DNA of 64,000 nt. Source: Bacteroidota bacterium (GTDB lineage Bacteria > Bacteroidota > Ignavibacteria > UBA10030 > UBA8401). A program made the translations under genes and the position numbers. The notes under the pieces were generated by a model. That model worked only from the letters and a program-made list of their open reading frames with translations. It did no database searches and was not told where the DNA came from. Positions 6,229-47,574 of this stretch are shown here, piece after piece (position 1 is the first letter of the stretch; each line of letters starts with the position of its first letter). The DNA is taken from the NCBI GenBank assembly GCA_030679145.1, contig JAUXTU010000036.1, positions 86,480 through 150,479 on the forward strand, written 5' to 3'.

Positions 6229-6239
6229 AGTGAATGAAG

Positions 6240-8920: not shown

Positions 8921-11299
8921 ATGAGACAAACCTATCTAATCCTGATTTTTCTTTTTACTCTTTCACTGGTATTTTCACAAAACATAAATTTTTTTTCTGT
9001 AAATGGTTATGTACAGGATAAAGAAAGCGGCGAAAAATTAATCGGATGCTTTGTCTTTGATTCTGCCAGTAAAAAAAGTGTGATGACAAATGCTTTTGGT
9101 TACTTTAATATTTCCCTGAATGAAGGTGATTGCAAAATCCTTACACACTACCTTGGTTATGTTGACCAAGCAGTAAGCTTTAAAATAAATAAAGACACAA
9201 CCATTATAATAAAACTTGCCACTTCTCAGCCATTCAAATTAGGTGAAGTTACAATTGTTGGTTCCGGTTCCGAAGCCAAATTATCGCAAGCGCAAATGGG
9301 ACAAATGACCATGACCAATAAGGATGTTAAAGCATTACCTGTATTTCTGGGCGAGCCCGATGTTATGCGTTCGCTGCAAATATTGCCCGGTATTCAGGCA
9401 GCAAATGAAAGGAGCACAGGAATTAGTGTACGGGGAGGCGGTATTGATCAAAACCTTTTCTTGCTCGATGATGCACCTGTTTTTCAAATTTCTCACCTGA
9501 TGGGTTTTTTCTCCGTATTTAATAATGATGCTGTAAAAGATATAAAAATTTACAAGGGAGACATTCCTGCGAATTATGGTGGACGTTTGTCCTCGGTAGT
9601 TGATATAAGGCTCAAAGATGGAAACATGCAAAATTATGACGTGGCGGGAGGATTGGGACTTATTTGTTCCGATGTAAGTGTTGAAGGACCTATTGTTAAT
9701 GACCGTGCTTCTTTTATTGTATCTGCAAAGTATTCATATTTAAGTTTACTCTTCAAAAAAATAAATTCTAATATTGATTTAGGGTTTTACGACCTCAATT
9801 GTAAATTAAATGCAATTATAGACAGCAAAAACCGCATTTATATTTCTTCATACATTGGTCACGACGATGCCACGATAGGCTTAAATGCCAGTTACCATAA
9901 TAATACACTATCCGCACGTTGGAATCATGTTTACAATCCAGACCTCTTTAGCAATGTTTCCTTCATCTATAGTAATTACAAATACTCAAACGACTATAAT
10001 TTTTCCAATGGTAACAGCTCTATAGATTTTAGTTGGAACTCAGGAATTAAACAAATCACGTTGAAAGCAGAAAATAATTACTATCTGAATAACAATAACA
10101 CAATTGATTTTGGCGCATCGACAACGTATAAGAATTTTATGCCCGGTAAATTGGAAGGGAATGAAACAGCCATTGACAACATTACACAATCAGTGCCTTT
10201 CAGTAATCGGGTTGTTTCTGATCAAGGCGTTTTAGAGCATGCTGTGTATATTTCAAACCAGCAAAAAATATCTGAAGATTTATCTTTTAAATACGGCATA
10301 CGGGTGAGTCTATATCAAAATATCGGCGGACATTGGGTTTATAATTTAAAGAATTATCAGGTAGTCGATTCATTTTATGTTGCCGAAAACAAAACCTATG
10401 CAAATGCTTACAGTGTTGAACCAAGGCTTGGCATTAATTACAGGGTATCTGAAAATTCATCCTTAAAAGCGAGTTATACCTACACAACCCAACAAGACCA
10501 ATTGCTGATGAAAACAAATGGCGGAGGACCTCTCGATGTTTGGTTTCCATCAGACAATAATATAAAACCACAAACAGCATCGCAATACAGTTTAGGGTAT
10601 ACACAATATTTTTTAGATAATTTATTAGAAGCAAGTGTTGAGGGCTATTATAAAGACATGAACAATATTATTGATTATAAAGATGGTGCAACATTTTTGG
10701 AAAATAGCTCACCTTTTACAATTGATAAAACCAGTTATAATTTTGAAGAACAATTGCGAACTGGCAAAGGCTATACGTATGGTACGGAAGTGATGCTTAA
10801 AAGCGATTTTGATGAATTAAATGGTTTTGTCAGTTATACCTATGCACGAAGCTTTCGTAAAATACCCGATATTAACTTCGGGCAACCTTATCTTTCACCG
10901 TTCGATAAGCCGCATACTTACAATGTATTATTAAATTATAATATTTCAGAACGAGTAACAATTTCAACCAATTTTAGAAGCCAAAGCGGGCAGGTTACTA
11001 CTATTCCTATTTACGTAATGAGTCTATGGGGCAAAACATTATCGGGTTATTCAAACAGGAATGATTATCGGCTGCCGCCTTACCAAAGACTGGATATTAG
11101 TCTTACACTTAAGAGTATAGAGACAGAGGGAGAGCATTTTCACAACGAATGGAATTTTTCCATTATCAATGTTCTAAACCACGCCAATATTCAATATGTT
11201 GATTTCGTCGCTTCGAAAGATAATCCCAACATTATCAATGCTAAAGGTGTATCTATGTTAGGTTTTATACCTTCTGTTTCGTATCGTTTTAATTTTTAA
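8921..11299 (+). CDS. TonB-dependent outer-membrane receptor with an N-terminal carboxypeptidase-regulatory-like domain.
   Basis: Signal peptide MRQTYLILIFLFTLSLVFSQ. Plug region (…GISVRGGGIDQNLFLLDDAPVF…). C-terminal beta-barrel ending SYRFNF. I chose the start at the internal ATG 8921 rather than the track start at 8831. Confidence 0.75.
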   Translation: MRQTYLILIFLFTLSLVFSQNINFFSVNGYVQDKESGEKLIGCFVFDSASKKSVMTNAFGYFNISLNEGDCKILTHYLGYVDQAVSFKINKDTTIIIKLATSQPFKLGEVTIVGSGSEAKLSQAQMGQMTMTNKDVKALPVFLGEPDVMRSLQILPGIQAANERSTGISVRGGGIDQNLFLLDDAPVFQISHLMGFFSVFNNDAVKDIKIYKGDIPANYGGRLSSVVDIRLKDGNMQNYDVAGGLGLICSDVSVEGPIVNDRASFIVSAKYSYLSLLFKKINSNIDLGFYDLNCKLNAIIDSKNRIYISSYIGHDDATIGLNASYHNNTLSARWNHVYNPDLFSNVSFIYSNYKYSNDYNFSNGNSSIDFSWNSGIKQITLKAENNYYLNNNNTIDFGASTTYKNFMPGKLEGNETAIDNITQSVPFSNRVVSDQGVLEHAVYISNQQKISEDLSFKYGIRVSLYQNIGGHWVYNLKNYQVVDSFYVAENKTYANAYSVEPRLGINYRVSENSSLKASYTYTTQQDQLLMKTNGGGPLDVWFPSDNNIKPQTASQYSLGYTQYFLDNLLEASVEGYYKDMNNIIDYKDGATFLENSSPFTIDKTSYNFEEQLRTGKGYTYGTEVMLKSDFDELNGFVSYTYARSFRKIPDINFGQPYLSPFDKPHTYNVLLNYNISERVTISTNFRSQSGQVTTIPIYVMSLWGKTLSGYSNRNDYRLPPYQRLDISLTLKSIETEGEHFHNEWNFSIINVLNHANIQYVDFVASKDNPNIINAKGVSMLGFIPSVSYRFNF

Positions 11300-12665: not shown

Positions 12666-13250
12666 ATGAAAAGCAGAACAATCAAAACCATTATTGAACA
12701 ACAAACATTTACGGGAATTGATTTTTCGAAGAATGGATTTCCGAAAGATGATTATGAGAATTGCAGTTTTCTCAACTGTAATTTGTCGAACGCAGATTTA
12801 TCGGGAATTAAATTTATTGAATGCACATTTAGAGGATGCAATCTCAGCGTGTCGAAACTGGATGGCACAACATTTAGGGATGCTCACTTCGTTGATTGCA
12901 AATTATCAGGAATGCAGTTTGGAAATTGCAATGAGATATTGTTTTCCGTTGATTTCGAGAACTGCAATCTTACCCTTGCAAGCTTTTATGCGTTGAACGT
13001 TAAAAAGACACGCTTTAAGAACTGCATACTTCACGAAGTTGATTTTACGCAGAGCGATTTGAGCGGCTCACTGTTTGATAATTGTGATTTTGCCAGAGCA
13101 AAATTTGATCGAACGAATTTGATAAAAACAGATCTTCGTAATTCCTATAATTATTCTATTGATCCTGAAGAGAATAAAGTGAAGAAGGCAAAATTTTCAG
13201 CAGTAGGAATTATCGGATTGCTAGGTAAGTACGATATTGATGTGGAATAA
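12666..13250 (+). CDS. Pentapeptide-repeat protein (Qnr/MfpA-like).
   Basis: Tandem A(D/N)LxG-type repeats throughout (NADLSGIKFIECTFRGCNLSVSKLDGTTF…). Start placed at MKSRTIK. Confidence 0.7.
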   Translation: MKSRTIKTIIEQQTFTGIDFSKNGFPKDDYENCSFLNCNLSNADLSGIKFIECTFRGCNLSVSKLDGTTFRDAHFVDCKLSGMQFGNCNEILFSVDFENCNLTLASFYALNVKKTRFKNCILHEVDFTQSDLSGSLFDNCDFARAKFDRTNLIKTDLRNSYNYSIDPEENKVKKAKFSAVGIIGLLGKYDIDVE

Positions 13251-13278
13251 AAAACAGACGTGATCGTTCTATTCAACT

Positions 13279-16200
13279 TTATTCAACTCTATTCAATTCT
13301 ATCGTAAACGTGCTTCCCATCGGCGGTGTGCTATTCACGTAAATTTTTCCACCGTGTGCATCAACGGTCTCTTTTACAATTGCAAGACCAAGTCCGGTTG
13401 CAGTCTCATCGCCTGTTGGTTTTGCAGATAAAACACGGAATTTTTTGAACAACTCATTTCGTTCACCCGCAGAAATACCGGGACCCTCGTCAGTGATCCA
13501 AAACTGTACCTTATCGTTGTGTCGGTACACACCGGCTTGAATCGCTGAATGCAGCGGGGAATATTTGATCGCATTGCTGACAAGATTTTCGATCGCATCC
13601 TGAATACGGGCGATGTCTGCCATGACCATGACAGTATCAAATTCATCAACAACAAAAGTCAATGTTTGTTCTTTTTTCTCCGCAAGAAATTTATAACTGT
13701 CGATAACCATTCCGGCAATTTCAGCAAGGTTTACTTTTTCAAATTGAAAGCTGATCGCGCCGCTTTCCATACCGGAGAGATTCAGCAGGTTATTGATCAC
13801 CTTGATCATTCCATCGGAGCTGTTTCGGATCATCTTCAAATATTTTTTTGAAACACTATCCAATGCTCCGCTTTGTTCAATCTGTTTTGTCAATCCGGTA
13901 ATGGATATCAGCGGACTTTTCACATGGTGCGTTACCATATCGAGCAGTTGAGATTTTACGGCATTGGCATTTTCCGCTTTTACTTTTTCCTGTTCGGTAA
14001 GATCAAGAAGTTGTTTGATCGTTTCTTGTTCTCCCTGCAGATCTTTTGTGCGGGTCTCAACAAGATGTTTCAATTTTTGTTCGCGGCGTTGTATTTGATG
14101 GACGCGTGCACGGTACACCCCAACCATACTTGACAGCACCAACAGGATCATGCCAACAATAAACAGATCTGTTTCATAAAAATATCCTTTTTTTACAAAT
14201 GTGATCGCTACACCGGTCGAGTCCCATACACCGTCACTATTTGCGGCAACGATACGGAATGTATATTTGCCGGGAGGCAAATGCGTATAATTTGTTGTAC
14301 GACGAGTATCAAGATCGTACCACTTCTTATCATATCCGTCAAGCATTGCTTTGAACCGAATTTTTTTCGGACTGACAAAACTCAATCCCGTAAAATGGAT
14401 TTCGATACGCTGGTTTTCCGCCGGCACAATAAATTCTTTATTGAATGATATCGGCTGATTGTCGATCAAGAACTGTTCGATCACTACTTTCGGTGATCTC
14501 TGGTTTGTAACGACCTTTTTTGGATTAACAATGGTAACGCCGCCGGCAGTTGAGAACCACAATGTTCCATCATGTACCTTCCAACCAGCGGGCTGAACGC
14601 CGCCGCTGTTTTCCATATTGATCATACCATGCTCTCTGCCATACACAGCGCATGTGATACTGTTTAATCCGGCGTAAAAGAATTTCATCACATCGAACTT
14701 ATCAACATAAAAAATGCCTTTGTTGGATGTCATCCATAATCGCCCCATATCATCTTCAAGAATGCTGAAAATAACATCATCAAATAAACCATTAACGGAT
14801 GTCAGCGTGAAGAATTTTTCACTCGTATAGCAGATCAATCCGCCGCCAAAAGTACCGATCCAGATGGAGTTATCATTGGTGACGTACATTGAACGAATGA
14901 AATTATTCGTCAATCCATTTTCGGTTGTGTACGATGTTATTCCATCATCGCCGATAACCGATATACCTGCACCGTCTGTTCCAACCCAAATATTTCCGCG
15001 GAAATCTTCGATGACACAGCTGGTGTAATTGCTTGCCAATCCTTGTGCGGTTGTGATCTGTTTGACTGTGCCGTTTTCGAATAGATAAATACCTTCTCCG
15101 GAAGAAGTAACCCACATGCGACCTTTGCTGTCGGCAAAAATATGTGAAGAGATCAATCCTTTGGTCTTTTCAACCGGCTGCACCGGTTTAACTTTACCAT
15201 TCTCAATGATATTCAATCCGCTGGCTGTTGCAACCCATATTCTGTCCGAATCGTCTTCGGCAACAGAATAGATCTCGTTATCTCGCATTCCTTCTTTTTC
15301 TGAATACCGCACAAACGTTTGCGGTGATTTGTAATTCATCTTCGCCAACCCGCTGTCAGTACCAATCCACATGTTGCGCATATAATCTTCCATGATTGTA
15401 TGTACTGCATTGGAAGGGAGTCCTTCCTTTGCGGTGTAGTTGGTAAACAATCTTTTGCGCAGAATTTCAAGTCCGCGTCCATCAGCTCCGATCCAAATAT
15501 TTTCTTCGGAATCGATGAACAGTGACATTACATGACCATATCGCTGACCGTCTTTATTTGTAAGGGATGAAATAATTCCGCGATCGATACGGGCAACACC
15601 GCTCTTTGTTCTCACCCACACAGCTTCATTTTTATCGATAAAGATCGAATAGACAATTCGGCTTGGCAAACCGTTCTTTTCCGTGAAGGTAAGGAACCGG
15701 CTCTTATCTTTGAAATCTATCAACACATTCATTAACCCGTCGTTGGTACCAATCCACATTGTACCATTTGAAGCTTCACGCAGTGAAGTAACGGTATTGT
15801 TTACCAATCCATCAGCAATAGTTAGATTATTGATCAATCCATTGTTGTAAATGGAAATTCCAACCTCTGTTCCAATCCAGACCTTCCCCTGAAGATCTTG
15901 ACTGAAACAGAGGACATCATTGGAAATCAATCCAGTAGTTTTATTAATTACCGTAAATGTCGAATCTTTCATCGTGATGACACCATGTTCACGAAGAGCT
16001 ATCCAGAGTGTTGCTTTAGTGTCTTGGAAAATTGCGCGTACGTGGCCGTGTGAAAGCTGGGGAATATGATCAATATGTGTGAAAACGCCGTTTTGATATT
16101 TTGTTAATCCGCCGTTATATGTTCCTATCCATAATATTCCATTGCGGTCTACATATAAAACGGTGATAAAATTATTGTTTATTGCAGGGGTATTTTTCTT

Positions 16201-25081: not shown

Positions 25082-26569
25082 TTATTTGATATAAGGAAGC
25101 AATATAGTCTGTTGTGTATTACGGATATGCTGAGGAACATCAGGCGATCCGATTATATATACTGCATATCCGCTATCCTTTACATGCCGTAATTGATCCT
25201 GTGAGGGAATGAATGGATACGCTGTAGCATGTGAGTAAAACATTGCTTCAATATAATGGGGTGTATTAAAGATCACCGCTTTTTGATCTCCGATCATAAT
25301 ACTAAAATTCCGAAACTGTTGCGCCCATAAAGGATTTCTGTCGATCTCTTGGAACGGTTTTAATCGTTCAATGGAATATCGGATTGGTAATATGATGAGA
25401 AATAGAACAAGAGTAATGCGAATCCATTTTTTTGTGGAAACAGATTCTTTGATCTTCCAAATAGACCAAGCAAGAATAATAAAAACCGCCGGTGCACTGA
25501 ACATAACATAGCCCGGCATTTTTGTTGCGACAATTGAAAAGAAAAGATACGGAACAAAAATCCAGACGAATAACATGGCGCCATTTTTTGAAATTTGTTT
25601 TTGCGCAAGCATGTAGATGAACAACGTAAGCGGAAGATAAATCAATTCGCCAAAAATTCGCGGCATCATGGCAAAATGGTAGAAAAATGTTCCGTCATGC
25701 CCATCAAGCGCCTCAAAAATGTGCATGTAGTTAAAATAACTTTCCCAAGCGGCTTCTTTCGGAAAAGTGGAAAATATATATATTTGCCAAGGAACGAATA
25801 TGATGCATGAAATACAAACAACAATAAAGGAATATCGAAATGCAACGCGCCACGAATCTCTTTGAAACAGTATAAGAAAAAATATGCCGACAACGATAAA
25901 TGCTGGAAGCCATTTGACTAGCACCGCACATCCCATCGCCATTCCGATGAAAAGAAGGTAAATGTTTTTTCGATACTGTATAAATTGTATCGAGAGAAAA
26001 ATTCCCAGTTCTACAAAAAAAACGAATAAAATATCTGGATGATCTGTCGGCTCATGTCCTGAGGCAAGTTCGATCAAAAATCCATTGATCGCAAAAAAAA
26101 ATGAGGCAAGCAGTCCTGTTCTGCGGTCAAAGATGTATTTCCCAATGGAATATGTTAATAGAATGCTGATTGATGAAAGGATGATACTGGGAATTCTCAC
26201 GGCGATCTCGTGAGTGCCGAACAATTTTAAACTTGCCGCAATAAGCCACAATGTAAGAGGCGGTTTGTGAATCCAAATATGATTGTTAGTCCACTCACGA
26301 TAATCGTAATCGAACAACGGCTTATCGTACAACGTAGGAATTAGAAAATGCTCCAATAGATTTTTTGCAGCAAGCGCATGGTAACGTTCATCCCACGAAT
26401 TCAAGAAAAAATCTGCACCAAGATAAAAACGTAATAGCAATCCTGCCGCAAAGATCAATATCAGCGCATATTTATATTGTTCGTTTGTATAAAACCTATA
26501 TGCCGAATAGAAAAGAATGACTGAAACTACAATGACAGATGAACCGAAGAAAGGGTTTGGTATCGTCAT
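25082..26569 (-). CDS. GT-C membrane glycosyltransferase of the ArnT/PMT family (GT39/GT83-like).
   Basis: About 12 transmembrane segments. N-terminal DE-containing loop (…WDERYHA…) typical of polyprenyl-phosphate-sugar-dependent transferases. Confidence 0.65.
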   Translation of the reverse strand: MTIPNPFFGSSVIVVSVILFYSAYRFYTNEQYKYALILIFAAGLLLRFYLGADFFLNSWDERYHALAAKNLLEHFLIPTLYDKPLFDYDYREWTNNHIWIHKPPLTLWLIAASLKLFGTHEIAVRIPSIILSSISILLTYSIGKYIFDRRTGLLASFFFAINGFLIELASGHEPTDHPDILFVFFVELGIFLSIQFIQYRKNIYLLFIGMAMGCAVLVKWLPAFIVVGIFFLILFQRDSWRVAFRYSFIVVCISCIIFVPWQIYIFSTFPKEAAWESYFNYMHIFEALDGHDGTFFYHFAMMPRIFGELIYLPLTLFIYMLAQKQISKNGAMLFVWIFVPYLFFSIVATKMPGYVMFSAPAVFIILAWSIWKIKESVSTKKWIRITLVLFLIILPIRYSIERLKPFQEIDRNPLWAQQFRNFSIMIGDQKAVIFNTPHYIEAMFYSHATAYPFIPSQDQLRHVKDSGYAVYIIGSPDVPQHIRNTQQTILLPYIK

Positions 26570-26676
26570 GATAGTTGTGATATTATTTTTGATAAGTAAC
26601 TGATGGTACGCAAAGATTTATTTATGTTATAAAATGGTTCGACGCAGCGCAGAACCTATGATCATCATGACCGTTT

Positions 26677-27435
26677 TTATTGTTTTGTGTAACGTGAATA
26701 AGTAAATATTGATGACCTTAAAATACCCAGTTTATTCAACCTAAATTGTATCGCCGTTTTCAAACAGCCCAATCCATATTTTACGCTTCGTGAAAAATTG
26801 ATGGATGAAGCATCGGCAAAATATTTTGCTGGACAAGTGATCTCGCCGACTCGAAAATCGGCGTATAAAATCTGTGAAAGCATTTCATTGTCAAAAACAA
26901 AATCGTTCGAGTTTCCATTGAACGGGATCGATTCTAACACGGTGCGTGTGAATGCCCGATACCCGGTATGATATTCCGATAATTTTGCTCCCATCAATAG
27001 ATTCTGAACAAGAGTTAAAAACCGATTACTGATGTATTTATACAGAGGCATTCCGCCGCTCATTGCTTTTCCGCCAAGGATTCTTGATCCGAGGACAACA
27101 TCAAACTCTCCTGATTCAAGAAGGAATGACATCGCTGAGATCAATTTCGGTGTATACTGATAATCAGGATGAAGCATTACAATAATGTCGGCATGTTGTA
27201 ATAGCGCAGCATTATAACATGTTTTTTGATTACCACCGTACCCAAGATTTTTTTCGTGCTCAATAACCTGAATGGAAAGTTGTTTTGCAACGCTAACGGT
27301 ATTATCGTTGCTTGCATCATCAACCAGAATTACTTCGTCAACAATATCAAATGGGATTTCGCGATATGTAGTTTCAAGGGTTTTTGCCGCATTGTATGCA
27401 GGAAGAACCACGACAATTTTTTTATTTCTGATCAT
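26677..27435 (-). CDS. Family 2 glycosyltransferase, polyprenyl-phosphate sugar synthase (DPM1/ArnC-like).
   Basis: VVLPAYNAAKTL…VILVDDASNDNT…DxD-type motifs. Partnered with the downstream GT-C transferase. Confidence 0.75.
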   Translation of the reverse strand: MIRNKKIVVVLPAYNAAKTLETTYREIPFDIVDEVILVDDASNDNTVSVAKQLSIQVIEHEKNLGYGGNQKTCYNAALLQHADIIVMLHPDYQYTPKLISAMSFLLESGEFDVVLGSRILGGKAMSGGMPLYKYISNRFLTLVQNLLMGAKLSEYHTGYRAFTRTVLESIPFNGNSNDFVFDNEMLSQILYADFRVGEITCPAKYFADASSINFSRSVKYGLGCLKTAIQFRLNKLGILRSSIFTYSRYTKQ

Positions 27436-27553: not shown

Positions 27554-27676
27554 AAATACTCCGCAGCTTGTTGCGGAGATGGTTATTAAATAAAGAATTG
27601 AATAAAAGTTAATTTTTTGAAGACAATGTTGAGAGCCTCTTTCAAAAGATACAAAATAAAATCAAAGATATATATT

Positions 27677-30600
27677 CTATAATCGTACCCCAAACACAAT
27701 TCTCCACCGGTATTCAAATTCGTTATCATTTGGTCGAGCAGGATCCTTTATCCAAAGAGGGAAATATACCCCCATCCCAATATTGCCGCTGCGAAAAGAC
27801 GCAAGACGAATGGTTCCCAAATTCAGTTGCAATCCGACACCGGCATCATAGAAAAATTGTTTGAATCGTGTTTTGGTCGAATCCCACAACGTTCCGCCAT
27901 CAGCGAATAATACCACCGGACCTTTTGATACCGCAATATTCATCGTTGTCACATTTCTTGCAATAGTATCACGCTGCAGAAATAAATTTCCTCCTCCCGA
28001 GTTTATAAAGTTGTCACGAAGCGAACGCCCAACGACCGGTGTGCGATGGAACCAACTGTCAAAATTTTCCAGCGGTGTGGATTGTGTCAGGGAATGCGCC
28101 GTCTGCACAGGAACATTTCCAGTTGAGCTTCCGCCGAAGATTCTCCAGTTCATTTTCATGCCAAGAATTGAATAATCCAATTTTGCTTCCGCTGTTAATT
28201 TGGAATAACTGAATGTTGATGTTGGTGTTCCAAACTCATCATCCAATCGAGCGAAGAATTTTCCACCGGAGAAGTTCTCAAGATATTTCAAACTGATAAA
28301 TCCGGCATCAAGATTTCCCGTACGATTCCATTCAGCAGGATTAGCAAGATAACGGTCATCATTCACACGAATGGAAAGAATGCTGGTGGTGATGGTGAAT
28401 GTTTGTTGATAATTTTTCATTAAACTCTTTTTGTGTTCAAATGATTTTTCAATGATCCATTGCCAGCCGCTGAACCCGTCCAACCGAAACAACCGTGCGA
28501 ATGTCGTTAATTGAGGATCCCACAATCGAATCGGAGTAGAATAGGAAAGTTCATAATCGGGAACATCGCTTCGTGTTCCGTATTTTGTGTGGAGTGAAAT
28601 GGCGTGGTCGGTTGCCATATAACTGCCGCTGATGTTTGCTCCGATCTCAATCCCGTCGCGAAGATTGAATCCGAAAGCAGGTGCAGCGTTGATGCGATAC
28701 GCATCGAGTGGAAAAAGCAGAAGATTGGCAAGATTGAATCCATAATCGAACACCACAGGAGGCATGCACCACGAGTTATTCAAGCGGTTGATATCGGCAA
28801 GCTTAATGTCAGGATCGATAACGACATTCTGTATTGATGTAGGAAGCGAATCGATTACAATCTCTGCACGGCGCCCTTTATTCCAAACATTTTCTGAAAA
28901 ACGAATATCGCGGATTGTTCCGTCTGCAAGCGTAAGACGAAGTGTTGCTGGCATGATTGTTTGCTCTTTATTTTCAAGAACGATTGTAGAAATATTTATG
29001 CCATTGCTCTGTTCGTTACGAACATCAGCAACAGCAATATCCAGTTTCCATTTTTGATCGAACCATTGATTCCAGAACCAATCAAGATCTCGTTCCGAAA
29101 CATCTTCGATGGTGTTGAAAAAATCTTGCGGATACGGATGTTTGAACAGCCAGCGGTTATAATATTCCACCATTGCCTTGGAAAATATTTCTGCGCCGAG
29201 AACATCTTCTAACATAACAAGTACAGCTGCCGGTTTTTGATATGCCATTACACCAAATTGGGAATACGATATAGAATACGGATGAGACATGATTGTCGCT
29301 TCATTGTTTGTCAACGCAAAGAGCAGGTAAAATCGTTGTTCAAATAATCGTTCATTCGATTCGGGAAGATTCATCCATGAATATTTTTTCAGAAAATCCT
29401 TATGGATAAGGCCGTTATCACCATTATGATCTTCAACAGCTTTTGAGGTGACAAAGGTATTGAAGCCTTCATCCATGAACGGGTAATTTGTTTCGTTGCT
29501 TCCGATCATCATTGGATACCATTCATGACCGAGTTCATGGGCAATCACGTGATAGAGAAGATTGGTCACCGGATCACCCGAACTTGCATAGATCATCATC
29601 GGATATTCCATTCCATCAACTGGACCGGAAACAACAGTCGCCTGCGGATACACATAGCTGCCGAAATGTTTTGAATTATGCTCAATGACATGCTTTGCCA
29701 TCTGTGCCCCTTCATCCCAATTCGATGCGTCACTCATCAACAATGGAAATGAAGCACGGAATTCATTTGGATGATAGAACGCATAGATGCGAACGCCGTT
29801 ATTCGTCATCGTTCCATCCCATACAAAGTTTGCCGAAGCGGCAAATGCAAAATCACGGATATTCTCCGCAATGAATTTCCAAACCGCTTTTTCTTCATTG
29901 ATGCTGTCTGCAGTCGCCTTAATTTCATCGGGAAGAATAATTCGTGTTGTTGAGTCGCGTGAGAGTGAGTTAAACCGGTGCAATTGCGAAGGAGTAAGAA
30001 CGTCGTTCGGATTAGTCAGTGTTCCCGTTGAGGCGATGACGAAATTTTTCGGCACCGTGATCTCAACGTCCCAGTTTCCATATTCAAGGTAGAATTCAGA
30101 GATTCCTAAGTATGGGGTTCTATTCCAGCCGCGCTGATCGTCATATACCGCGATTTGCGGATACCATTGGCTGATGCCAAAATCATTCCCCGAACGTCCC
30201 GTACGAAGCGAAGGATCTTTTGGAATATCATATCTCCACGTGACCGTAATAGTCGTTGATGTATTGGGAAGCAGTGATGATGGAAGTTCAGTTTCCATCA
30301 ATGTTTCATCAATTTTGATGGATGGTTTTATTCCATTAATAGAAATGTCTTCGATGGTGATACCCTCTGTTGTTGCAACGATTCGGCTCAACTCTTCATT
30401 GTTTTTTCTAGGAGAAGAATCTTTGCGAAAAATATTTTGATAAAGATGCCACACTAACGTTTTCAACGTGTCGGGTGAATTGTTATAATAGACGATTGTT
30501 CCCGTTCCCCGTAATTCATTCTTTTCAGGAAAAAGTTCTGCCTTCATAGAATAATCCACCCGTTGTTGCCAATATGAAGACGATGGTGATCCGTTGGAAA

Positions 30601-30679
30601 GGCGCGTTTGGTCTTTTGCGAAAAATGATTGGAAACAAAAAAATGAGAGGATGGTAAAAAAGAAAAGAGAAGTTTTCAT
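27677..30679 (-). CDS. M1-family zinc aminopeptidase domain fused to a C-terminal region of about 400 aa predicted to be an Omp85/Bac_surface_Ag-like beta-barrel.
   Basis: Signal peptide. GMEYP (a GAMEN variant) followed by HELGH-x18-E, the gluzincin signature. The C-terminal region is rich in alternating hydrophobic residues and ends …FYDAGVGLQLNLGTIRLASFR…YRWRIVFGVRL. Confidence 0.6.
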   Translation of the reverse strand: MKTSLFFFTILSFFCFQSFFAKDQTRLSNGSPSSSYWQQRVDYSMKAELFPEKNELRGTGTIVYYNNSPDTLKTLVWHLYQNIFRKDSSPRKNNEELSRIVATTEGITIEDISINGIKPSIKIDETLMETELPSSLLPNTSTTITVTWRYDIPKDPSLRTGRSGNDFGISQWYPQIAVYDDQRGWNRTPYLGISEFYLEYGNWDVEITVPKNFVIASTGTLTNPNDVLTPSQLHRFNSLSRDSTTRIILPDEIKATADSINEEKAVWKFIAENIRDFAFAASANFVWDGTMTNNGVRIYAFYHPNEFRASFPLLMSDASNWDEGAQMAKHVIEHNSKHFGSYVYPQATVVSGPVDGMEYPMMIYASSGDPVTNLLYHVIAHELGHEWYPMMIGSNETNYPFMDEGFNTFVTSKAVEDHNGDNGLIHKDFLKKYSWMNLPESNERLFEQRFYLLFALTNNEATIMSHPYSISYSQFGVMAYQKPAAVLVMLEDVLGAEIFSKAMVEYYNRWLFKHPYPQDFFNTIEDVSERDLDWFWNQWFDQKWKLDIAVADVRNEQSNGINISTIVLENKEQTIMPATLRLTLADGTIRDIRFSENVWNKGRRAEIVIDSLPTSIQNVVIDPDIKLADINRLNNSWCMPPVVFDYGFNLANLLLFPLDAYRINAAPAFGFNLRDGIEIGANISGSYMATDHAISLHTKYGTRSDVPDYELSYSTPIRLWDPQLTTFARLFRLDGFSGWQWIIEKSFEHKKSLMKNYQQTFTITTSILSIRVNDDRYLANPAEWNRTGNLDAGFISLKYLENFSGGKFFARLDDEFGTPTSTFSYSKLTAEAKLDYSILGMKMNWRIFGGSSTGNVPVQTAHSLTQSTPLENFDSWFHRTPVVGRSLRDNFINSGGGNLFLQRDTIARNVTTMNIAVSKGPVVLFADGGTLWDSTKTRFKQFFYDAGVGLQLNLGTIRLASFRSGNIGMGVYFPLWIKDPARPNDNEFEYRWRIVFGVRL

Positions 30680-36339: not shown

Positions 36340-39108
36340 ATGGAACATACTAAATTGAATAAATTTGTTGCCGGATTTGTTTTTCTTGCAACATTGATCG
36401 CATATATTTTAACGCTGGCTGATACAGTTGTATTTTGGGACGTTGGTGAATTTATTTCAGCAACATATTTACTGCAAGTTCCGCATCCGCCGGGATCGCC
36501 GCTATTCCTGCTGGTTGGAAAAGTGATCGGCATGGTTCCATTCTACAAAGATCTAGCGGTTCGTATTCATTTTATCTCCGCTCTTTCCAGTGCGTTGACA
36601 GCGTTGTTTTTATATCTTTCTCTGGTAAAATTGATAATTTTATGGCGTCCGCGTACTGATGATGTGTGGAATAAGATCTCTCTCTATACTTCTGCAGCAG
36701 TCGGGGCTTTCTCACTTTCGTTCAGCACAACGTTTTGGTTCAATGCGGTGGAAGCAGAAGTGTATGGTATCAGCATGTTGTTTGTAGGATTGGTGACATG
36801 GCTTGCGCTTCGATGGAATGAACGGGCAGACTCACCGACACACCAACGATATATATTTTTGATCGCGTATCTTATCGGATTGTCGCTTGGTGTTCACTTG
36901 TTGGCGCTGCTTGTTATTTTTCCGTTCCTTATCATCGTCTTTTTCCGCAGGTATGAATTTTCAATTCGCAATTACATCATCTTTGGTTTAATTGCGATAG
37001 GAATTTTTGCAATTGTCTATCCCGGAATCGTCAAAATGCTTCCAAACCTGCTTGACGGCGAATATGCCATCGGCAGCGGAGCAGAATCGAAAAGCATTTT
37101 CTGGACGATGATCCCAATCGCCGCGATTCTTGCTGCAATTTATGGTGTTTGGTATTCCATTAAAAATAAAAAAGAACTCTTGAATCTTGCTTCATTGTCG
37201 TTTCTCTTGATCATTCTTGGATATTCGACGTATGCAATGGTGATCATTCGTGCGAATGCAAATACACCGATGAATGAAAATGATCCAAGCACACTGAAAA
37301 AATTAGTATCCTATCTTAATCGTGAACAGTACGGCGATTCGCCCATCATGAAACGCCGCCACAGCCAGGAACCGCAGCATCAAGGAATTTATACAAACTA
37401 TAAAAGTGATACGGACTACTTCATGCGTTATCAGATGTATGAAATGTTTGGACGATATTTCTTATGGCAGTATGCGGGACGCGAAGGAGATTTTCAGGGT
37501 GCCGAAGTGAATTGGAAACAATTGTGGGGCATACCGTTATTCTTTGGTTTATTCGGAGTCTTTTATCATTGGAAAAAAGATCGTCAAATGTGGTGGGTCT
37601 TCTTCAACTTTTTCATATTGATGGGATTCATTATGGCGGTCTATTTTAATATGCAGAATCCGCAGCCTCGTGAGCGTGATTATTTTTACGTCGGCGCATT
37701 CTTCGTTTTTTCAATTTGGATTGGAATTGGAACGATTGGATTTTTTGATACGATCCGCGATGCAATGAAGAACGACCAAATGAAAAAATATCTTTCAATG
37801 GCGGCATTATTATTTGCTGTTGTGTTTGTCCCGATCAATATGGCATACACCAACTTCAAAGTTTCGGATCGAAGCGGTGATTATGTTGCATGGGATTATT
37901 CATACAATCTGCTTCAATCGTGCGAACCGGATGCAATTCTTTTTACCAATGGTGACAACGATACATTCCCGTTATGGTATCTTCAGGATGTTGAAGGTGT
38001 TCGCCGTGATATTCGAATTGTCAATCTTAGTTTGGTGAATACATCGTGGTATATTCGTCAACTAAAACATCAAGAACCACACGGTGCAAAAAAGGTTGCG
38101 ATCAGTTTAACGGATCCGGAGATCGAACAGATCGGTCCGATGCAATGGGAACCAAGAGAAATGACGATTCCTGTTCCTGCTGATGTCATGAAAGAGTATG
38201 AACAATTCTCTGATAAACCAAAACAACCAAAGATGAAGAATGATACAGCGGGCAAAGCAGGAGAAGTTCGATTCGTTCTTCCGAATACGATGTCATTCCC
38301 GCAAGCAGGCGGAGAAGTGATCAAAGCGATCCGCGCACAGGATATTATGGCATATGATATTATTCGTTCCAATAATTGGATTCGACCAATCTATATGGCT
38401 GTAACATCAACACCGGATTCGAAGATCGGACTCGATCGTTTCTTCCGTATGGATGGATTGGCGATGAAATTGATTCCGTATGCTACTCCGACGGATGAAG
38501 GCGTTATCGATCCGAAAATTCTTTCAGCAAATTTGTTGAACGAACCTGTTGAACCAAATTTACATTTTCAACGCGGATATCGGTATCGGGGATTGCAAGA
38601 TACCACAGTTCATTATGATGAAAATGTAACCCGTCTTGCAATGAATTATCGCAATGCATTCATGCGTCTGGCATTATATTACATCAATACCACCCATGAA
38701 AATGCAAAAGCTGTTGCAACACTTGATTCAATGATGGTGAAATTGCCCACCTCGGTACTTCCGATGGATTATCGTGTGGAATTTGATATCACCAACTTCT
38801 ATCATTTTGCAGGTGCCAAAGAACGATATGAAACAATGACGCAAAATCTGGAAACTAAATTGCTTGATATCGTTTCAAAACCGGGATTAGAGCCGTTCAC
38901 AAACCAATATCATCCGTATTATATGTTGTATACAATGTATCAAAACCGCGGACGATACGATAAAGCAATCGAAACCCTCGATCGGATCAGTGCAGCGTAT
39001 GCAACCACCCAAGGATTACCGCAATGGATTGAAATGCAAAAAGGCCAGATGCAGGCGCAGTTAGCATTGAGTGGTGCGGGTAAAAAAGATTCAATAGCAA
39101 AAAAATAA
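36340..39108 (+). CDS. DUF2723-family GT-C-like membrane protein with a large C-terminal TPR-like domain.
   Basis: N-terminal multi-transmembrane region with DxxE-like motifs (WDVGEF…). 922 aa. GGAGG-like Shine-Dalgarno (aaagaggtagtaATG). Confidence 0.55.
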   Translation: MEHTKLNKFVAGFVFLATLIAYILTLADTVVFWDVGEFISATYLLQVPHPPGSPLFLLVGKVIGMVPFYKDLAVRIHFISALSSALTALFLYLSLVKLIILWRPRTDDVWNKISLYTSAAVGAFSLSFSTTFWFNAVEAEVYGISMLFVGLVTWLALRWNERADSPTHQRYIFLIAYLIGLSLGVHLLALLVIFPFLIIVFFRRYEFSIRNYIIFGLIAIGIFAIVYPGIVKMLPNLLDGEYAIGSGAESKSIFWTMIPIAAILAAIYGVWYSIKNKKELLNLASLSFLLIILGYSTYAMVIIRANANTPMNENDPSTLKKLVSYLNREQYGDSPIMKRRHSQEPQHQGIYTNYKSDTDYFMRYQMYEMFGRYFLWQYAGREGDFQGAEVNWKQLWGIPLFFGLFGVFYHWKKDRQMWWVFFNFFILMGFIMAVYFNMQNPQPRERDYFYVGAFFVFSIWIGIGTIGFFDTIRDAMKNDQMKKYLSMAALLFAVVFVPINMAYTNFKVSDRSGDYVAWDYSYNLLQSCEPDAILFTNGDNDTFPLWYLQDVEGVRRDIRIVNLSLVNTSWYIRQLKHQEPHGAKKVAISLTDPEIEQIGPMQWEPREMTIPVPADVMKEYEQFSDKPKQPKMKNDTAGKAGEVRFVLPNTMSFPQAGGEVIKAIRAQDIMAYDIIRSNNWIRPIYMAVTSTPDSKIGLDRFFRMDGLAMKLIPYATPTDEGVIDPKILSANLLNEPVEPNLHFQRGYRYRGLQDTTVHYDENVTRLAMNYRNAFMRLALYYINTTHENAKAVATLDSMMVKLPTSVLPMDYRVEFDITNFYHFAGAKERYETMTQNLETKLLDIVSKPGLEPFTNQYHPYYMLYTMYQNRGRYDKAIETLDRISAAYATTQGLPQWIEMQKGQMQAQLALSGAGKKDSIAKK

Positions 39109-42904: not shown

Positions 42905-45229
42905 TTATTTTTGTAACAACAATTTCTTTGTCTGCATAAAGTTATCAGATTGCATTCGATAAAAATATACACCGCTTGATAATTTTCCACCTTTGAACGG
43001 TACCGAATAAAATCCCTCCTTCTTTTCTTCATTCAATAGTGTCGCAACTTCACGACCGAGAATGTCGAATATTTTTATTGTTACCAACGATTGCTTTGGT
43101 ATTGCAAACGATATAGTTGTAGTCGGATTAAATGGATTCGGATAATTTTGATATAATTGAAATTGAGTTGGCATTTGATTAATTACAGTTTCCTCTTCTA
43201 ACGATGTAAATTGACTTATCCGGAAATCAAATAATCCATCAATAAAAGATAAGGCGTAAACAGTATCTGCAATTGCTACTAATTTATTTATGCCAATACT
43301 ATCCATTCCAGCATACGTCCAAAGTAGGCCATTATTTTTTGTAAAATATAATCCACGAGGTCGATACAATGGATCTGTTGCATCAAATACTGAAAGCCAT
43401 AAGTTGTTCTTACTATCAAACGCGTAATAGTTTTGGAAATAAATATCTGGGGTTAAAGGAAAATTCGGCAACGGTATTTCAACAAGCTGGTTTGCTGTTT
43501 TCTTAAACAGTTTCAATTTATTTTGCGCTGTAGCAAAAACATAAAGGAGACTGTCATTGTCCATTATAATATCTTGAATAAAAAATTTACTTAATCCGGA
43601 AGAATCAATTTTCCAAATACCGTCAGGGAGAGTTTTTTTGTAGATAAATAATTTTTCTCCGGGAAATTGAAATTCGTTTTTTAAGAAATATCCAGTAACA
43701 CCATCCGATAAATATCTATTTGGTTTATCATAAGAAACAGCTAATTTCAATCCCGTTGAATCAACTTTCCATCCGGTATCTTTTGTTCTGAAGTATGGCA
43801 AATGTTTTGTAAAACTAAATAAATATTGATTTCCATTATTATCAACATAGTATTTATCGTTAGTCGACAAAGTAATATTATTTGTTTTCAAACCAGCGGT
43901 GTCCAATATCCAAGTAGTTCCTTTATCAGAGGATTTCCAGATTGTTGAGGAACTCTCATTCTTACTTTTTGGTGCGACGACATAAATATTTCCCGCACCA
44001 TCATTTTGTATACTTAAATTTGAAAAATATCCATTAACAGGAAATATTTTTTTAAAAACAGTATCACCGTCCATTACTCTATATAGTCCAAGATTAGTCG
44101 ATATAAAATGATGATTTCCAGCACGAGCCAAGCTATAGAATCTATTGGGATTAAATTGAAATTCTTTTGGCATTATAGTCCACGTATCACCAAAGTCGGT
44201 GCTTTGAAAATTTCCGTATTTAGTTGCAGCATATACAAGTGAATCGCCCTGTACGTTTGAAAATAGATCAGTTGGATTCATTGAATAATCAAGCGAATTT
44301 ATTCCTTGTGAAATATCGATCCACGGTTCTGTCCCGCCGTTTGATCTATACGCACCATAGTACGTTACAGCGTAAATATTTCCATACGCATCATCTCCAT
44401 AACTATCAGCATATTTATTTTGGGGAATACTTTGAAACGTTTTCCACGTTGTCCCTTTGTCGGTTGATACATAATTGCTAAAATAATCGGAAACATAAAT
44501 CCTTCCACGGCGATCTATGAAAATAACCTCACATGAAAAAGCGGGGAAGCTTAAAACCTTATTCCAGACACTTGAATCCGGATGTTGTTTATATAATCCC
44601 TTATTGGTAGCAGTGTAAACATAATGAGAAGAATCTTCAGCAATATCATAAATAGTATTTATCCCTAATCCGGTAGAATCTAATTTCCAGGTTTGTCCAT
44701 CATCACGGCTGACATAGACAGTACTATTGCCAACGACATAAAGGGCATCTCCAATTATTTTCTTAAAATATAAATATTGCAAGGGAGAAATAATTTGCCC
44801 TGCGTATTTTTGAGTAAATGTACTCTTTAAAGGATCATAAATAATTACTGCTATCTCTCCGTTTGAAAATAGAACAAAGTAATAATTTGGAATGTTGCTT
44901 TTTTGTGTAACATCAATTATTGAAATTTCTGGAGGAGCTTCTAAACGAAACCACCCAGCAGGATGGACCGCATCGCCTTGATAGTATGGTATCATTACTA
45001 ATAATTTTTCATTAAACATTGTAAATATTTCAAGATTGTCCGCAACATTTTTTTTGAATGCTTTCGTGGACACCTCGCCTACCAAATATGCCGATGCTTC
45101 ATAATTAAAAAATGATTCTGCATTAAATTGTGAATAAGCAGAGTTGCTAAAAAAAAGGAATAAAGTTGTCATAAAGGAAACAACCTTGAACAATTTTTTT
45201 GGTATGGTGAAAATGTCTTGAGTTTTCAT
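42905..45229 (-). CDS. T9SS-secreted BNR/Asp-box repeat protein.
   Basis: Asp-box motifs (SRDDGQTW, STDKGTTW, STDFGDTW, SSDKGTTW). C-terminus FQLYQNYPNPFNPTTTISF…KKLLLQK. Confidence 0.7.
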   Translation of the reverse strand: MKTQDIFTIPKKLFKVVSFMTTLFLFFSNSAYSQFNAESFFNYEASAYLVGEVSTKAFKKNVADNLEIFTMFNEKLLVMIPYYQGDAVHPAGWFRLEAPPEISIIDVTQKSNIPNYYFVLFSNGEIAVIIYDPLKSTFTQKYAGQIISPLQYLYFKKIIGDALYVVGNSTVYVSRDDGQTWKLDSTGLGINTIYDIAEDSSHYVYTATNKGLYKQHPDSSVWNKVLSFPAFSCEVIFIDRRGRIYVSDYFSNYVSTDKGTTWKTFQSIPQNKYADSYGDDAYGNIYAVTYYGAYRSNGGTEPWIDISQGINSLDYSMNPTDLFSNVQGDSLVYAATKYGNFQSTDFGDTWTIMPKEFQFNPNRFYSLARAGNHHFISTNLGLYRVMDGDTVFKKIFPVNGYFSNLSIQNDGAGNIYVVAPKSKNESSSTIWKSSDKGTTWILDTAGLKTNNITLSTNDKYYVDNNGNQYLFSFTKHLPYFRTKDTGWKVDSTGLKLAVSYDKPNRYLSDGVTGYFLKNEFQFPGEKLFIYKKTLPDGIWKIDSSGLSKFFIQDIIMDNDSLLYVFATAQNKLKLFKKTANQLVEIPLPNFPLTPDIYFQNYYAFDSKNNLWLSVFDATDPLYRPRGLYFTKNNGLLWTYAGMDSIGINKLVAIADTVYALSFIDGLFDFRISQFTSLEEETVINQMPTQFQLYQNYPNPFNPTTTISFAIPKQSLVTIKIFDILGREVATLLNEEKKEGFYSVPFKGGKLSSGVYFYRMQSDNFMQTKKLLLQK

Positions 45230-45240: not shown

Positions 45241-47574
45241 CTATTTTAGCAATAATAATTTTCTTGATGCACTGTAATTTCCAGTTTTCAACGAATAAAT
45301 ATATACCCCTGTTGAAAGTTTCGATGCATCGAATTGAACCGAATGTAATCCTGCATTTCGCTCTTCATTAATAAGCACTGCAACTTCCCGCCCGAGAATG
45401 TCGTGCACTTTCAATGATGTGAAACCTGAAGTCTGAAGCATGAACCGTATCGTCGTTGTCGGATTGAACGGATTTGGATAATTCTGAAACAACTCGTACG
45501 AATCTGCAATCTGCGGTTTGGTATTCTCAACCGAAGTTGGTTCTGAGGCCGTTGTGAATCGATAAACACCATCGATGAATGTTACCGCATAGACACCTGG
45601 TAACGAAGATGATCCGGAACTTTTCATGAATGAAGTGGATGAATCATCAACCGCATTCAGGAATTTGATGCCGACGCCGTTCAATCCAACATATTTCCAC
45701 GTTGTACCATTATCTGTAGTAAAGTGAACTCCTTTGTTAGAGCCACCCGCGAAGAACACCGCCCAAATAACTCCATTTTTATCTATCGTTAAAGGATACG
45801 GCGAAGGTGAAGATCCAATTGTTGTAGGAAGCGGTGTCTCAGCCCAGGTGCTTCCGTTGTATCGCCAGATTTTTTCGGGACTAGAAAAAGCTTTTACCAT
45901 AATATTTCCATCTTGATCGCTCGATAATATACCATCACCGGCGGCAAGGATGCTGGTATTGACAATCTTCCAGGCGGAATCATTTATTGTCTTGCTATAG
46001 ATGAACAACTTAAGACTTCCTGAAAACACCACCCTGCTTACATAAATAATTCCTTTCTTGTTATTCAAGGTGACGGCTTTTATATATTGATTTGCTTGCA
46101 TGCCCAATCCCGCAGTGTCGAGCTTCCACGCTTGTCCCGGTTTTTTAGTTAAGAATCTGGCGTTACCACCTAAATATTGTGTGCCCTGTCTGTCTACCCA
46201 AAAATCATACGTCTGCGTTCCGGCAGTGATCCCTAGTGCTTTTTGTCCGGCTGTATCCGGGATCCAGGTATCGCCGTGATCGGTCGATTTAACGGTGTAA
46301 AAGAGCCAAGAGGAAGGACCAGTCTTTATAGGAAGATTCCCATAAACATTTCCAACGGAGTCGGATGTTATGACATTTATTCCCCAGACAAACCCCTGTT
46401 TTGGAAATACTTTTTCCGATATCGTATCTCCTACGGCAACCCGATAAATACCAAGGTTTGTTGAGATGAAATAATAATTTCCACCCTTTACAACACCGGT
46501 ATAAAAATTATGTGCCCGCGATTGTGAACTGATAGGTGAGTGTACCCAGTTCGTTCCAAAATTTGTGCTTTGAAACATTCCATATTTTGTAGAAGCAAAA
46601 AGCACGCTGTCGCCGCTTATGGTATTGATAATTTTTTCGCTTGAAGGAAGATACTTCTGTGCGTTGAGCGAATCGCTGATAGATTCCCACGGGGGAGTAA
46701 GATTTGAAAGCCGGTATGCGCCAGAACTTGTTCCCACCGCGTAAATATTTCCAAACGCGTCATCTCCAAACGAAGCGATTCCTTCAACAACACCTGAAGA
46801 AATATTTGTAAACGTAACACCGCCGTCGGTTGACATTACTACTCTTCCTTGAGCGACTGATGCTGTAGTGTAGATGAACATTCGTCCTTTTCGATCAACA
46901 AAAATTTTACGAGGGAATCCTGTTGTTTTAAATGAGGTATCCTTACGCCAAATATTTGAATCTGGATGTTGGTAATACAAATTACGGCTTTCCGTTACTA
47001 CCCAGCCGTAATGATTTGTATCAACCGCAATATCATTCACAGATTCGCTGCCAATATTTGTTGTATCGAGCAACCAAGTTTTTGCCGTGTCCCAACTTGC
47101 ATAGACCTTTCCCGATCCAAGCGCATACACTGCATCCCCGATAATTTTATTAAAAATTGGAAACCCAATTACGGTAATGGGTATTGTTGCACCAACTTCC
47201 CAATGGCTGCCAAGTTGAGTCTGAATATATTTAAGCACTGTTACCATACCATTAGAAAATAATACAAAAGCAATATCAGGATTATCTGACTTAAAATTAG
47301 CCGACACAATTTTTTTTTCAAAGGGAGCCTTTACGACTACTCCACTACCACCGTCATCGCCGCCAAAGAGTCTCGTCGTTATTGATGCTACTCCACATTC
47401 TTTTTCAGTATAATAAAGGTGATGTATATTTTCATATGCGCCCCTATCAATCCGTCGGCTAATGTCTGCAAGCACAGTTTCACCAAATATGGTAACTCTA
47501 CTTTGCGAATACATCCGTGTAGGAATCATACATAAAATCATTACAAACAATAGTGTAGAAAAAAACTTTGACAT
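45241..47574 (-). CDS. T9SS-secreted BNR/Asp-box repeat protein, tandem paralog of the gene at 42905-45229.
   Basis: Collinear similarity to the upstream paralog (…QHPDSNIWRK… against …QHPDSSVWNK…; …STKYGMFQSTNFGTNW… against …ATKYGNFQSTDFGDTW…). Start set at MSKFF (signal peptide) with a GGAGG Shine-Dalgarno. Confidence 0.7.
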   Translation of the reverse strand: MSKFFSTLLFVMILCMIPTRMYSQSRVTIFGETVLADISRRIDRGAYENIHHLYYTEKECGVASITTRLFGGDDGGSGVVVKAPFEKKIVSANFKSDNPDIAFVLFSNGMVTVLKYIQTQLGSHWEVGATIPITVIGFPIFNKIIGDAVYALGSGKVYASWDTAKTWLLDTTNIGSESVNDIAVDTNHYGWVVTESRNLYYQHPDSNIWRKDTSFKTTGFPRKIFVDRKGRMFIYTTASVAQGRVVMSTDGGVTFTNISSGVVEGIASFGDDAFGNIYAVGTSSGAYRLSNLTPPWESISDSLNAQKYLPSSEKIINTISGDSVLFASTKYGMFQSTNFGTNWVHSPISSQSRAHNFYTGVVKGGNYYFISTNLGIYRVAVGDTISEKVFPKQGFVWGINVITSDSVGNVYGNLPIKTGPSSWLFYTVKSTDHGDTWIPDTAGQKALGITAGTQTYDFWVDRQGTQYLGGNARFLTKKPGQAWKLDTAGLGMQANQYIKAVTLNNKKGIIYVSRVVFSGSLKLFIYSKTINDSAWKIVNTSILAAGDGILSSDQDGNIMVKAFSSPEKIWRYNGSTWAETPLPTTIGSSPSPYPLTIDKNGVIWAVFFAGGSNKGVHFTTDNGTTWKYVGLNGVGIKFLNAVDDSSTSFMKSSGSSSLPGVYAVTFIDGVYRFTTASEPTSVENTKPQIADSYELFQNYPNPFNPTTTIRFMLQTSGFTSLKVHDILGREVAVLINEERNAGLHSVQFDASKLSTGVYIYSLKTGNYSASRKLLLLK

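Follow-up and report, generated by a model that had tools for sequence, protein, structure and literature searches.

The stretch of DNA analyzed here, referred to as the window, comprises 64,000 nucleotides of contig JAUXTU010000036.1 from a Bacteroidota bacterium (GCA_030679145.1). Its minus strand carries a gene encoding an M1 zinc peptidase unit fused to a C-terminal barrel of the Omp85 type with no POTRA domain, and this architecture is considered almost certain. The open reading frame (ORF) of the fusion gene spans 1000 codons from an ATG start at 30679 down to 27680 and is followed by a stop codon at 27677-27679. A plus-strand reading of 27677-30679 was rejected, its translation being full of stops. 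The gene occurs as a single copy within the window, with a G+C content of 0.42 compared to 0.39 for the whole 64 kb. The features of the protein and their coordinates are listed in Table 1.

The signal peptide that the first-pass annotation had placed ahead of the M1 unit was recovered and aligns with the signal peptides of the homologues. Its helix, at amino acids (aa) 2-19, was modeled by AlphaFold2 (AF2) with a low predicted local distance difference test (pLDDT) score. An identical public protein (P0001), named as stemming from a metagenome-assembled genome (MAG; “MAG: M1 family metallopeptidase [Bacteroidota bacterium]”), starts at Met45 (MKAELFPEK) and has a length of 956 aa. With this start, the signal peptide is lost together with the near-invariant YWQQ, both of which are kept in all 1000-aa homologues. 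The public start codon was therefore probably mis-called, leaving out the first 44 codons (30548-30679, minus strand).

Table 1. Features of the fusion gene and its 3' flank, with positions in the window. SPI, signal peptidase I; L6, loop 6.
Feature	Position	Strand	Evidence
M1 peptidase-Omp85 barrel fusion gene, 1000 aa + stop	27677..30679	minus	ORF list, translation, ~1000-aa homologues
Signal peptide, aa 1-21, MKTSLFFFTILSFFCFQSFFA followed by KD after the cleavage site, SPI-type, no lipobox	30617..30679	minus	sequence; N-termini of homologues align
Domain I, N-terminal beta domain, aa 22-320, including near-invariant YWQQ (36-39)	29720..30616	minus	AF2, Foldseek, conservation
Domain II, thermolysin-like catalytic, aa 321-545	29045..29719	minus	PF01433, PDB sequence matches, AF2 (helical)
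GMEYP, aa 356-360, GxMEN variant with N -> Y	29600..29614	minus	invariant in 47 homologues
Zinc site HELGH-x18-E (H381, E382, H385, E404)	29468..29539	minus	invariant columns, sequence
Tyr480, presumed transition-state-stabilizing Tyr, YxK context	29240..29242	minus	Y480 and K482 invariant; phmmer stretch aligned to Tricorn F3
Domain III, all-beta sandwich, aa 546-637, ends DPD...D-x-NR-x-NN-x-W	28769..29044	minus	AF2 strands 548-621; ends of short forms
Linker specific to the fusion, aa 638-660, with a short strand (642-646) and a helix (650-654)	28700..28768	minus	AF2
16-stranded Omp85-type beta-barrel, aa 661-1000	27680..28699	minus	AF2, Foldseek, weak BamA matches, PF01103 in homologues
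Long loop joining strands 11 and 12 (Omp85 L6 position), aa 855-908, invariant R879, GGGN 894-897	27956..28117	minus	AF2, motif alignment
LFADGG, aa 924-929, strand 13, FxDxG-type; then YDAGVG, aa 944-949, strand 14	27893..27910	minus	conservation, alignment
Terminator-like hairpin, ~100 nt past the stop codon, before the GT2 gene	27559..27578	minus	consensus scan only

The M1 aminopeptidase unit

The M1 unit extends over aa 22-637 (~615 aa), and its domains I-III are complete. Peptidase_M1 (PF01433) was the sole Pfam match in the protein, with 58.9 bits over a cut-off of 27.7 at aa 375-539, and was also matched by all 47 homologues of the conservation alignment, which share 29-79% identity with the query. 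Positions invariant in this 47-sequence alignment include G356, M357, E358, Y359, P360, H381, E382, H385, E404, Y480, and K482. Among them are the zinc ligands of the HELGH at 381-385. The exopeptidase motif GxMEN keeps its G, M, and E, with an invariant Tyr at the Asn position (GMEY). NCBIfam returned sub-threshold matches to aminopeptidase N and LTA4 hydrolase, while sequence matches in the PDB comprised F3, PSA, ERAP1/2, and PepN, the closest solved structure having an E-value of 6e-7. Foldseek aligned the whole AF2 model to ERAP1, IRAP, ERAP2, and PepN at E ~1e-21 over ~650 columns, which correspond to domains I-III.

The catalytic Tyr of M1 enzymes stabilizes the transition state, a role presumably taken by Tyr480. 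As the zinc site, the GxME(N to Y) motif, and the catalytic Tyr are all intact, the unit is expected, by analogy to M1 enzymology, to be enzymatically active and not a pseudo-enzyme.

A helical domain IV (ERAP1_C) is typical of M1 peptidases without being a defining part of them. Neither ERAP1_C nor any other helical C-terminal domain was found by Pfam, and past residue 621 the AF2 model consists of strands and three helices of 4-5 residues. The first-pass annotation had thus rightly noted that no canonical ERAP1_C follows the catalytic domain. Its complete M1 unit with GMEYP and HELGH-x18-E also stood with respect to the motifs, which were supported by Pfam and the 47 homologues, while the proposed size of ~470 aa was replaced by ~615 aa.

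The C-terminal barrel

The beta-rich C-terminal region (661-1000), which ends ...FYDAGVGLQLNLG...YRWRIVFGVRL, had been read in the first-pass annotation as an Omp85-like barrel, with structure prediction, Pfam, and a search for the same fusion in relatives suggested as checks. AF2 modeled the full-length protein from the 47-sequence alignment with a mean pLDDT of 89.5 and a predicted template modeling score (pTM) of 0.87. The model is beta-rich up to ~320, helical from 321 to 541, and forms a six-stranded sandwich at 548-621, followed by a strand and a helix (642-654) and sixteen long strands at 661-996. Neither the helical ERAP1_C nor the soluble beta-sandwich that would have refuted the first-pass reading was thus predicted for the C-terminal half, which forms a 16-stranded barrel in the model. 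When aa 625-1000 were modeled alone in a second AF2 run, the barrel was reproduced with 16 strands, a pLDDT of 85.0, and a pTM of 0.81. The best 50 Foldseek matches of the C-terminal model in the PDB were all BamA or TamA, at E-values of 1.9e-9 to 1.6e-7 and a probability of 1.00, with TM-scores of only 0.36-0.49.

Sequence searches with the query itself remained weak. PF01103 (Omp85) gave no Pfam match at E<=0.1, aa 911-963 weakly matched the last BamA strands in NCBIfam (E 0.004), and a profile of 19 barrel segments had a single match in the PDB, a BamA at the non-significant E-value of 0.44. The part aligned to BamA in the NCBIfam and PDB profile searches was the LFADGG stretch, of which F925 and D927 are conserved in at least 90% of homologues. 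Direct sequence proof of Omp85 identity therefore fails for the query, which has sub-threshold matches only. In contrast, the gathering score of PF01103 (24 bits) was passed by the homologues P0061, P0083, P0146, and P0195 with 34.1, 40.7, 35.0, and 24.2 bits, respectively. Of these, P0061 and P0083 are homologous to the query along their full length (E 2e-147 and 5e-137, 94-96% query coverage, 32-34% identity), and the other two, P0146 and P0195, are fusions with a truncated N-terminus that were retrieved by the barrel profile. The suggested Pfam check thus came out negative for the query, in which neither PF01103 nor POTRA was matched, and positive for P0061 and P0083. Fold, Foldseek matches, and PF01103 in homologues together bear out the barrel.

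L6 of BamA and FhaC lies between strands 11 and 12, and its RG[YF], with the hallmark (V/I)RG(Y/F), is linked to Omp85 function. The loop at this position is 54 residues long in the query. Here and in the close clade the RG[YF] is missing and replaced by GGGN[LMV]F-L, and the query clade ends in Leu, whereas a distant clade of the family has GGGxxRG[YF] in the long loop and a terminal Phe. This difference in L6 and in the C-terminal residue could mark a functional split. The distant clade additionally shows a ~20-residue insertion between strands 12 and 13. A test of alternating hydrophobicity did not discriminate, as barrel strands reached 1.25/-0.91 and soluble control strands 1.36/-0.80. 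Omp85 membership of the query rests on the predicted fold and on transitive homology, with one hallmark motif degenerated in its lineage.

Distribution of the family

A search of 5.8 billion proteins recovered more than 7800 homologues. Among the best 120 of them, 98 had a length of at least 900 aa, which places the fusion far beyond chance and shows that it recurs in relatives. Most homologues covered 96-100% of the query at 30-79% identity and originated from Bacteroidota, Ignavibacteria, Kryptoniota, and Longimicrobiales MAGs. With the barrel profile, 891 representatives (50% clusters) among 1.84 billion were found at E<=1e-3, 468 of them at E<=1e-10, and most were ~1000 aa long with the barrel at the C-terminus. 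All seven mid-length matches (500-800 aa) tested for other N-terminal domains turned out to be truncated M1 fusions, and the same applied to P0195 (407 aa), which was rejected as a different architecture. A cluster look-up for a cultured host of the fusion returned none, the named members being MAGs or Candidatus Kryptonium, whose homologue is CUS81453.1.

A scan of GTDB species representatives, from which 80 loci were kept, contained 11 fusions and 69 barrel-less short forms, in which the profile match extends no further than position 625-632, where domain III ends. Most short forms carry an SPI-type signal peptide and end 1-10 residues (up to ~28) past ...DPxxxxPDxNRxNNxW. No extra C-terminal domain was found in them, the tails counting 0-28 aa. 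They include one cultured organism, Prolixibacter bellariivorans (L063). A Gemmatimonadales genome (L013) holds two short-form M1 paralogues ~1 kb apart on the same strand, at 5731-7866 and 8841-10802.

Barrel-only proteins, made up of a signal peptide and this barrel alone, were represented by P0229 (418 aa) and P0236 (416 aa). They match the barrel profile at E ~1e-30 and start at the PDAWYN motif of strand 1. Both (~417 aa) carry a canonical L6 motif, GLRGY or NLRGY. The fusion may have obtained its barrel from a POTRA-less “noNterm” Omp85 to which these two proteins are related or from which they descend.

The names given to the homologues were “M1 family metallopeptidase/aminopeptidase”, “aminopeptidase N”, or “hypothetical protein”, and none of them mentions Omp85; nor is any of the 468 clusters annotated as such. 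The outer-membrane location of the family was consequently missed, because annotations name only the M1 part. Full-text searches of the literature found no description of an M1-Omp85 fusion. The fusion is real, widespread, and unannotated as such.

The fusion point and the absence of POTRA

The fusion point was placed after W637 because short forms end shortly past the NNxW motif (624-637 in the query), and strand 1 begins at aa 661. In the full-length model the linker between them reached a pLDDT of 78-95, which dropped to 45-69 when the enzyme was removed.

The first-pass annotation had suspected a POTRA-like segment between enzyme and barrel. The POTRA fold is beta-alpha-alpha-beta-beta. 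The segment at 548-621 is all-beta in the AF2 model and lies within the ~650 columns aligned to ERAP1, IRAP, and PepN, and its POTRA identity was rejected in favor of the sandwich of M1 domain III. No POTRA was matched by Pfam in the query, the segment is part of the M1 core, and the linker leaves only 23 aa. POTRA-less (“noNterm”) proteins are recognized members of the Omp85 superfamily (PMC4104836, PMC11358297).

Genomic context

Two genes lie downstream of the fusion gene on the same minus strand: a glycosyltransferase family 2 (GT2) gene at 26677-27435, resembling polyprenyl-phosphate sugar synthases (PpgS/ArnC-like), and a PMT_2/ArnT-like gene at 25082-26569. This arrangement agreed with the first-pass annotation but was not conserved in relatives. 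In L001, L002, and L004 (60-71% identity), an extracytoplasmic function (ECF) sigma gene directly follows the fusion gene and the GT2/ArnT-like pair is absent, whereas the ECF sigma gene of the window is found beyond the pair. The distant loci L081-L083 share no neighbors with the window or with each other. A functional tie was rejected on these grounds, and the pair is not regarded as a conserved neighbor because the relatives have the sigma gene directly after the fusion. Most simply, it (25082-27435) would be a lineage-specific two-gene insertion. The hairpin listed in Table 1 is weak evidence that the fusion gene may form its own transcription unit, and the gene was treated as stand-alone.

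Peptidase genes occur at two of the distant loci. A Peptidase_S9/S15 gene (4380-5945) is located immediately upstream of the fusion in L083, a Longimicrobiales MAG, and a Peptidase_S8 gene (12731-13975) near the fusion in L081 (GCA_900174565.1). Such neighbors are suggestive of peptide catabolism and are not conserved.

Elsewhere in the window, four large proteins (6578-8725, 42905-45229, 45241-47619, and 47624-51544) carry C-terminal sorting domains (CTD; Por_Secre_tail) of the type IX secretion system (T9SS). They include BNR/sortilin-like and beta-helix/DUF11 proteins, which fits an organism of the Fibrobacteres-Chlorobi-Bacteroidetes (FCB) group with T9SS-dependent surface proteins; in this group, T9SS is known to deliver enzymes to the cell surface. 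The window further encodes a protein O-mannosyltransferase of the TMEM260-like type at 36340-39108 and a 1042-aa TPR-CHAT protein, with a caspase-like CHAT domain after many TPR repeats, at 51656-54784 on the plus strand.

Proposed role of the fusion protein

The fusion protein is read here as an outer-membrane-anchored, periplasm-facing zinc aminopeptidase, with a probability of roughly 0.6. The data show how the domains are arranged, that the catalytic residues are intact, that the barrel is of the Omp85 type in fold and homology, that POTRA is missing, and that each part also occurs as a protein of its own. That the enzyme faces the periplasm, which substrates it accepts as an aminopeptidase, and that the barrel acts as an anchor are inferred. 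Sec would export the precursor, whose SPI-type signal peptide would then be removed. The M1 unit would stay in the periplasm, where the 23-residue linker would hold it directly under the barrel, and would remove N-terminal residues from imported oligopeptides that entered the periplasm. The barrel would serve mainly as membrane anchor or scaffold and not as a translocation pore.

This orientation is favored because of the short forms, the analogy to PlpD, the structured linker, the lack of POTRA and of a beta-helical passenger, the predicted docking, the loss in L6, and the T9SS proteins of the window. Since the 69 orthologue-like short forms mostly carry SPI signal peptides and end after domain III, the ancestral enzyme was most simply periplasmic. 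Only 23 residues separate the end of the enzyme from strand 1 of the barrel, the linker is predicted to be structured, and strand 1 starts on the periplasmic side in known Omp85 proteins. A pTM of 0.87 for a protein of 620+340 residues implies a confident enzyme-barrel docking at the level of the model, in which the linker is ordered only with the enzyme present. The loss of RG[YF] from L6 in the query clade would fit an anchor role. The best-studied enzyme-Omp85 chimera is PlpD. Its patatin domain was shown to stay in the periplasm, and the same study argued that, for energetic reasons, a folded domain could not plausibly pass through a closed Omp85 barrel and proposed that the Omp85 scaffold has been reused for new functions (Hanson et al. 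2024, PMC11116518). The first-pass annotation had compared the protein to PlpD as a self-exporting, type V-like peptidase, a premise that is outdated by this result, and the passenger-POTRA-barrel layout of type Vd systems does not apply to it, POTRA being absent. Self-export is accordingly the less likely reading.

Several points weigh against a periplasmic orientation. The barrel face contacted by the enzyme is deduced from chain topology, and a signal peptide alone does not exclude that the short forms are secreted by other routes. The distant clade keeps the L6 RG[YF] and the terminal Phe as functional Omp85 translocases do, the 23-residue linker would, when extended, suffice to span the membrane, and AaaA, an aminopeptidase autotransporter, is reportedly a precedent for a peptidase passenger on a type V system.

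The last three of these points equally speak for a surface-displayed or released aminopeptidase, whose M1 unit would be exported by the barrel, acting either by itself or in a hybrid formed with BamA while it assembles, and would digest extracellular peptides for uptake. The order of enzyme and barrel would match type Va/Vd layouts, peptidase genes are found near two homologue loci (S8 in L081, S9/S15 in L083), and both topologies have been raised for enzyme-Omp85 chimeras (Heinz & Lithgow 2014, PMC4104836). Nevertheless, the passenger would be a three-domain zinc enzyme of ~615 residues, the protein has neither POTRA nor a beta-helical passenger, its linker is short and predicted to be structured, and the query clade lacks RG[YF]. 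The four proteins with a T9SS-type CTD in the window also speak against this route, for which PlpD, now shown to be periplasmic, was the only model. Surface display is possible but unlikely.

It is rather doubtful that the POTRA-less barrel and the capless M1 unit at its mouth form a new outer-membrane machine, either a self-contained device for surface display or export that follows neither T9SS nor type V rules, or a peptide pore coupled to an exopeptidase. If true, this would be a third function of the Omp85 scaffold beyond insertion and translocation.

The barrel could also be a working partner of the enzyme, as a conduit that would pass peptides across the outer membrane to the docked peptidase and so couple import to trimming, or by binding the beta-signal of misfolded outer-membrane proteins that the M1 unit degrades. 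The rigid docking predicted (pTM 0.87) and the lack of a domain IV cap, which leaves the cleft open to what lies above, are in line with such a cooperation; Omp85 lumens, however, are normally occluded by L6, and the loci compared hold no conserved partner genes. Enzyme and barrel interact functionally in PlpD (PMC11116518), but the abundant short forms without barrel or cap indicate that the enzyme can exist without them, and the proposal is speculative and improbable.

That the C-terminal domain is a soluble beta-domain resembling Omp85 by chance, for which the sub-cut-off Pfam score of the query, the TM-scores of 0.36-0.49, and the hydrophobicity test without separation of barrel from soluble strands could be invoked, can be dismissed as highly improbable in view of the 16 long strands with the L6-position loop, the top 50 PDB matches being BamA or TamA throughout, the homologues passing PF01103, the FxDxG and RG[YF] motifs with beta-signal-like terminal Phe/Leu, and the existence of relatives made of a signal peptide and a barrel only.

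To our knowledge, Omp85 proteins have long been thought to be confined to insertion and translocation and always to bear POTRA domains. PlpD recently showed that the Omp85 scaffold can instead keep an enzyme periplasmic. The family described here adds a second cargo of this kind, an M1 peptidase that is unrelated to the first enzyme, much larger, and carried by a barrel without POTRA, and it is conserved in several phyla of the FCB group. This suggests that tethering an enzyme below an Omp85 barrel has been used repeatedly and is not an isolated case. The soluble short form, the barrel-only protein, and the fusion offer a natural three-way comparison for the contribution of the barrel.

Comparison with known systems

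The aminopeptidase AaaA of Pseudomonas aeruginosa is likewise covalently linked to a C-terminal outer-membrane barrel. AaaA is reportedly an M28 peptidase on a 12-stranded type Va autotransporter barrel and surface-exposed, whereas an M1 unit is joined to a 16-stranded barrel of the Omp85 type in the fusion protein.

With canonical M1 enzymes (PepN, ERAP1/2, IRAP, Tricorn F3, LTA4H), the enzyme part shares domains I-III, HExxH-x18-E, GxME, and the catalytic Tyr. In contrast to them, it has no capping ERAP1_C or Leuk-A4-hydro_C, and GMEY takes the place of GxMEN.

The barrel part resembles BamA/TamA in its fold, 16 strands, long L6, and FxDxG-type motif on strand 13. Unlike BamA/TamA, it has no POTRA domains, RG[YF] is missing in the query clade, the sequence similarity is sub-threshold, and no indication of an insertase role was found.

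The census of the Omp85 superfamily lists patatin, “Metallo” (PF00149), and “noNterm” subfamilies (Heinz & Lithgow 2014, PMC4104836). None of its 10 subfamilies is described as an M1 fusion, and the words “peptidase” and “aminopeptidase” are absent from the text of PMC4104836. The “Metallo” group is also an enzyme-Omp85 chimera, whereas its N-terminal domain is PF00149 and not Peptidase_M1 (PMC4104836). “noNterm” proteins are POTRA-less barrels, as are the barrel described here and those of P0229 and P0236 (PMC4104836).

A parallel is drawn to PlpD/FplA, patatin-like Omp85 proteins formerly called type Vd autotransporters, which likewise combine a signal peptide, an N-terminal hydrolase, and a C-terminal 16-stranded Omp85 barrel in one polypeptide. 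If the analogy applies, the M1 unit probably also remains below the barrel on the periplasmic side (PMC11116518). While the enzyme of PlpD/FplA is a patatin lipase of ~31 kDa, separated from the barrel by POTRA and found in Proteobacteria and Fusobacteria, the fusion protein has an M1 zinc peptidase of ~615 aa, no POTRA, and hosts from the FCB group. As enzyme and POTRA status differ, it would work like a patatin-like (PL)-Omp85 chimera without being a member of that family.

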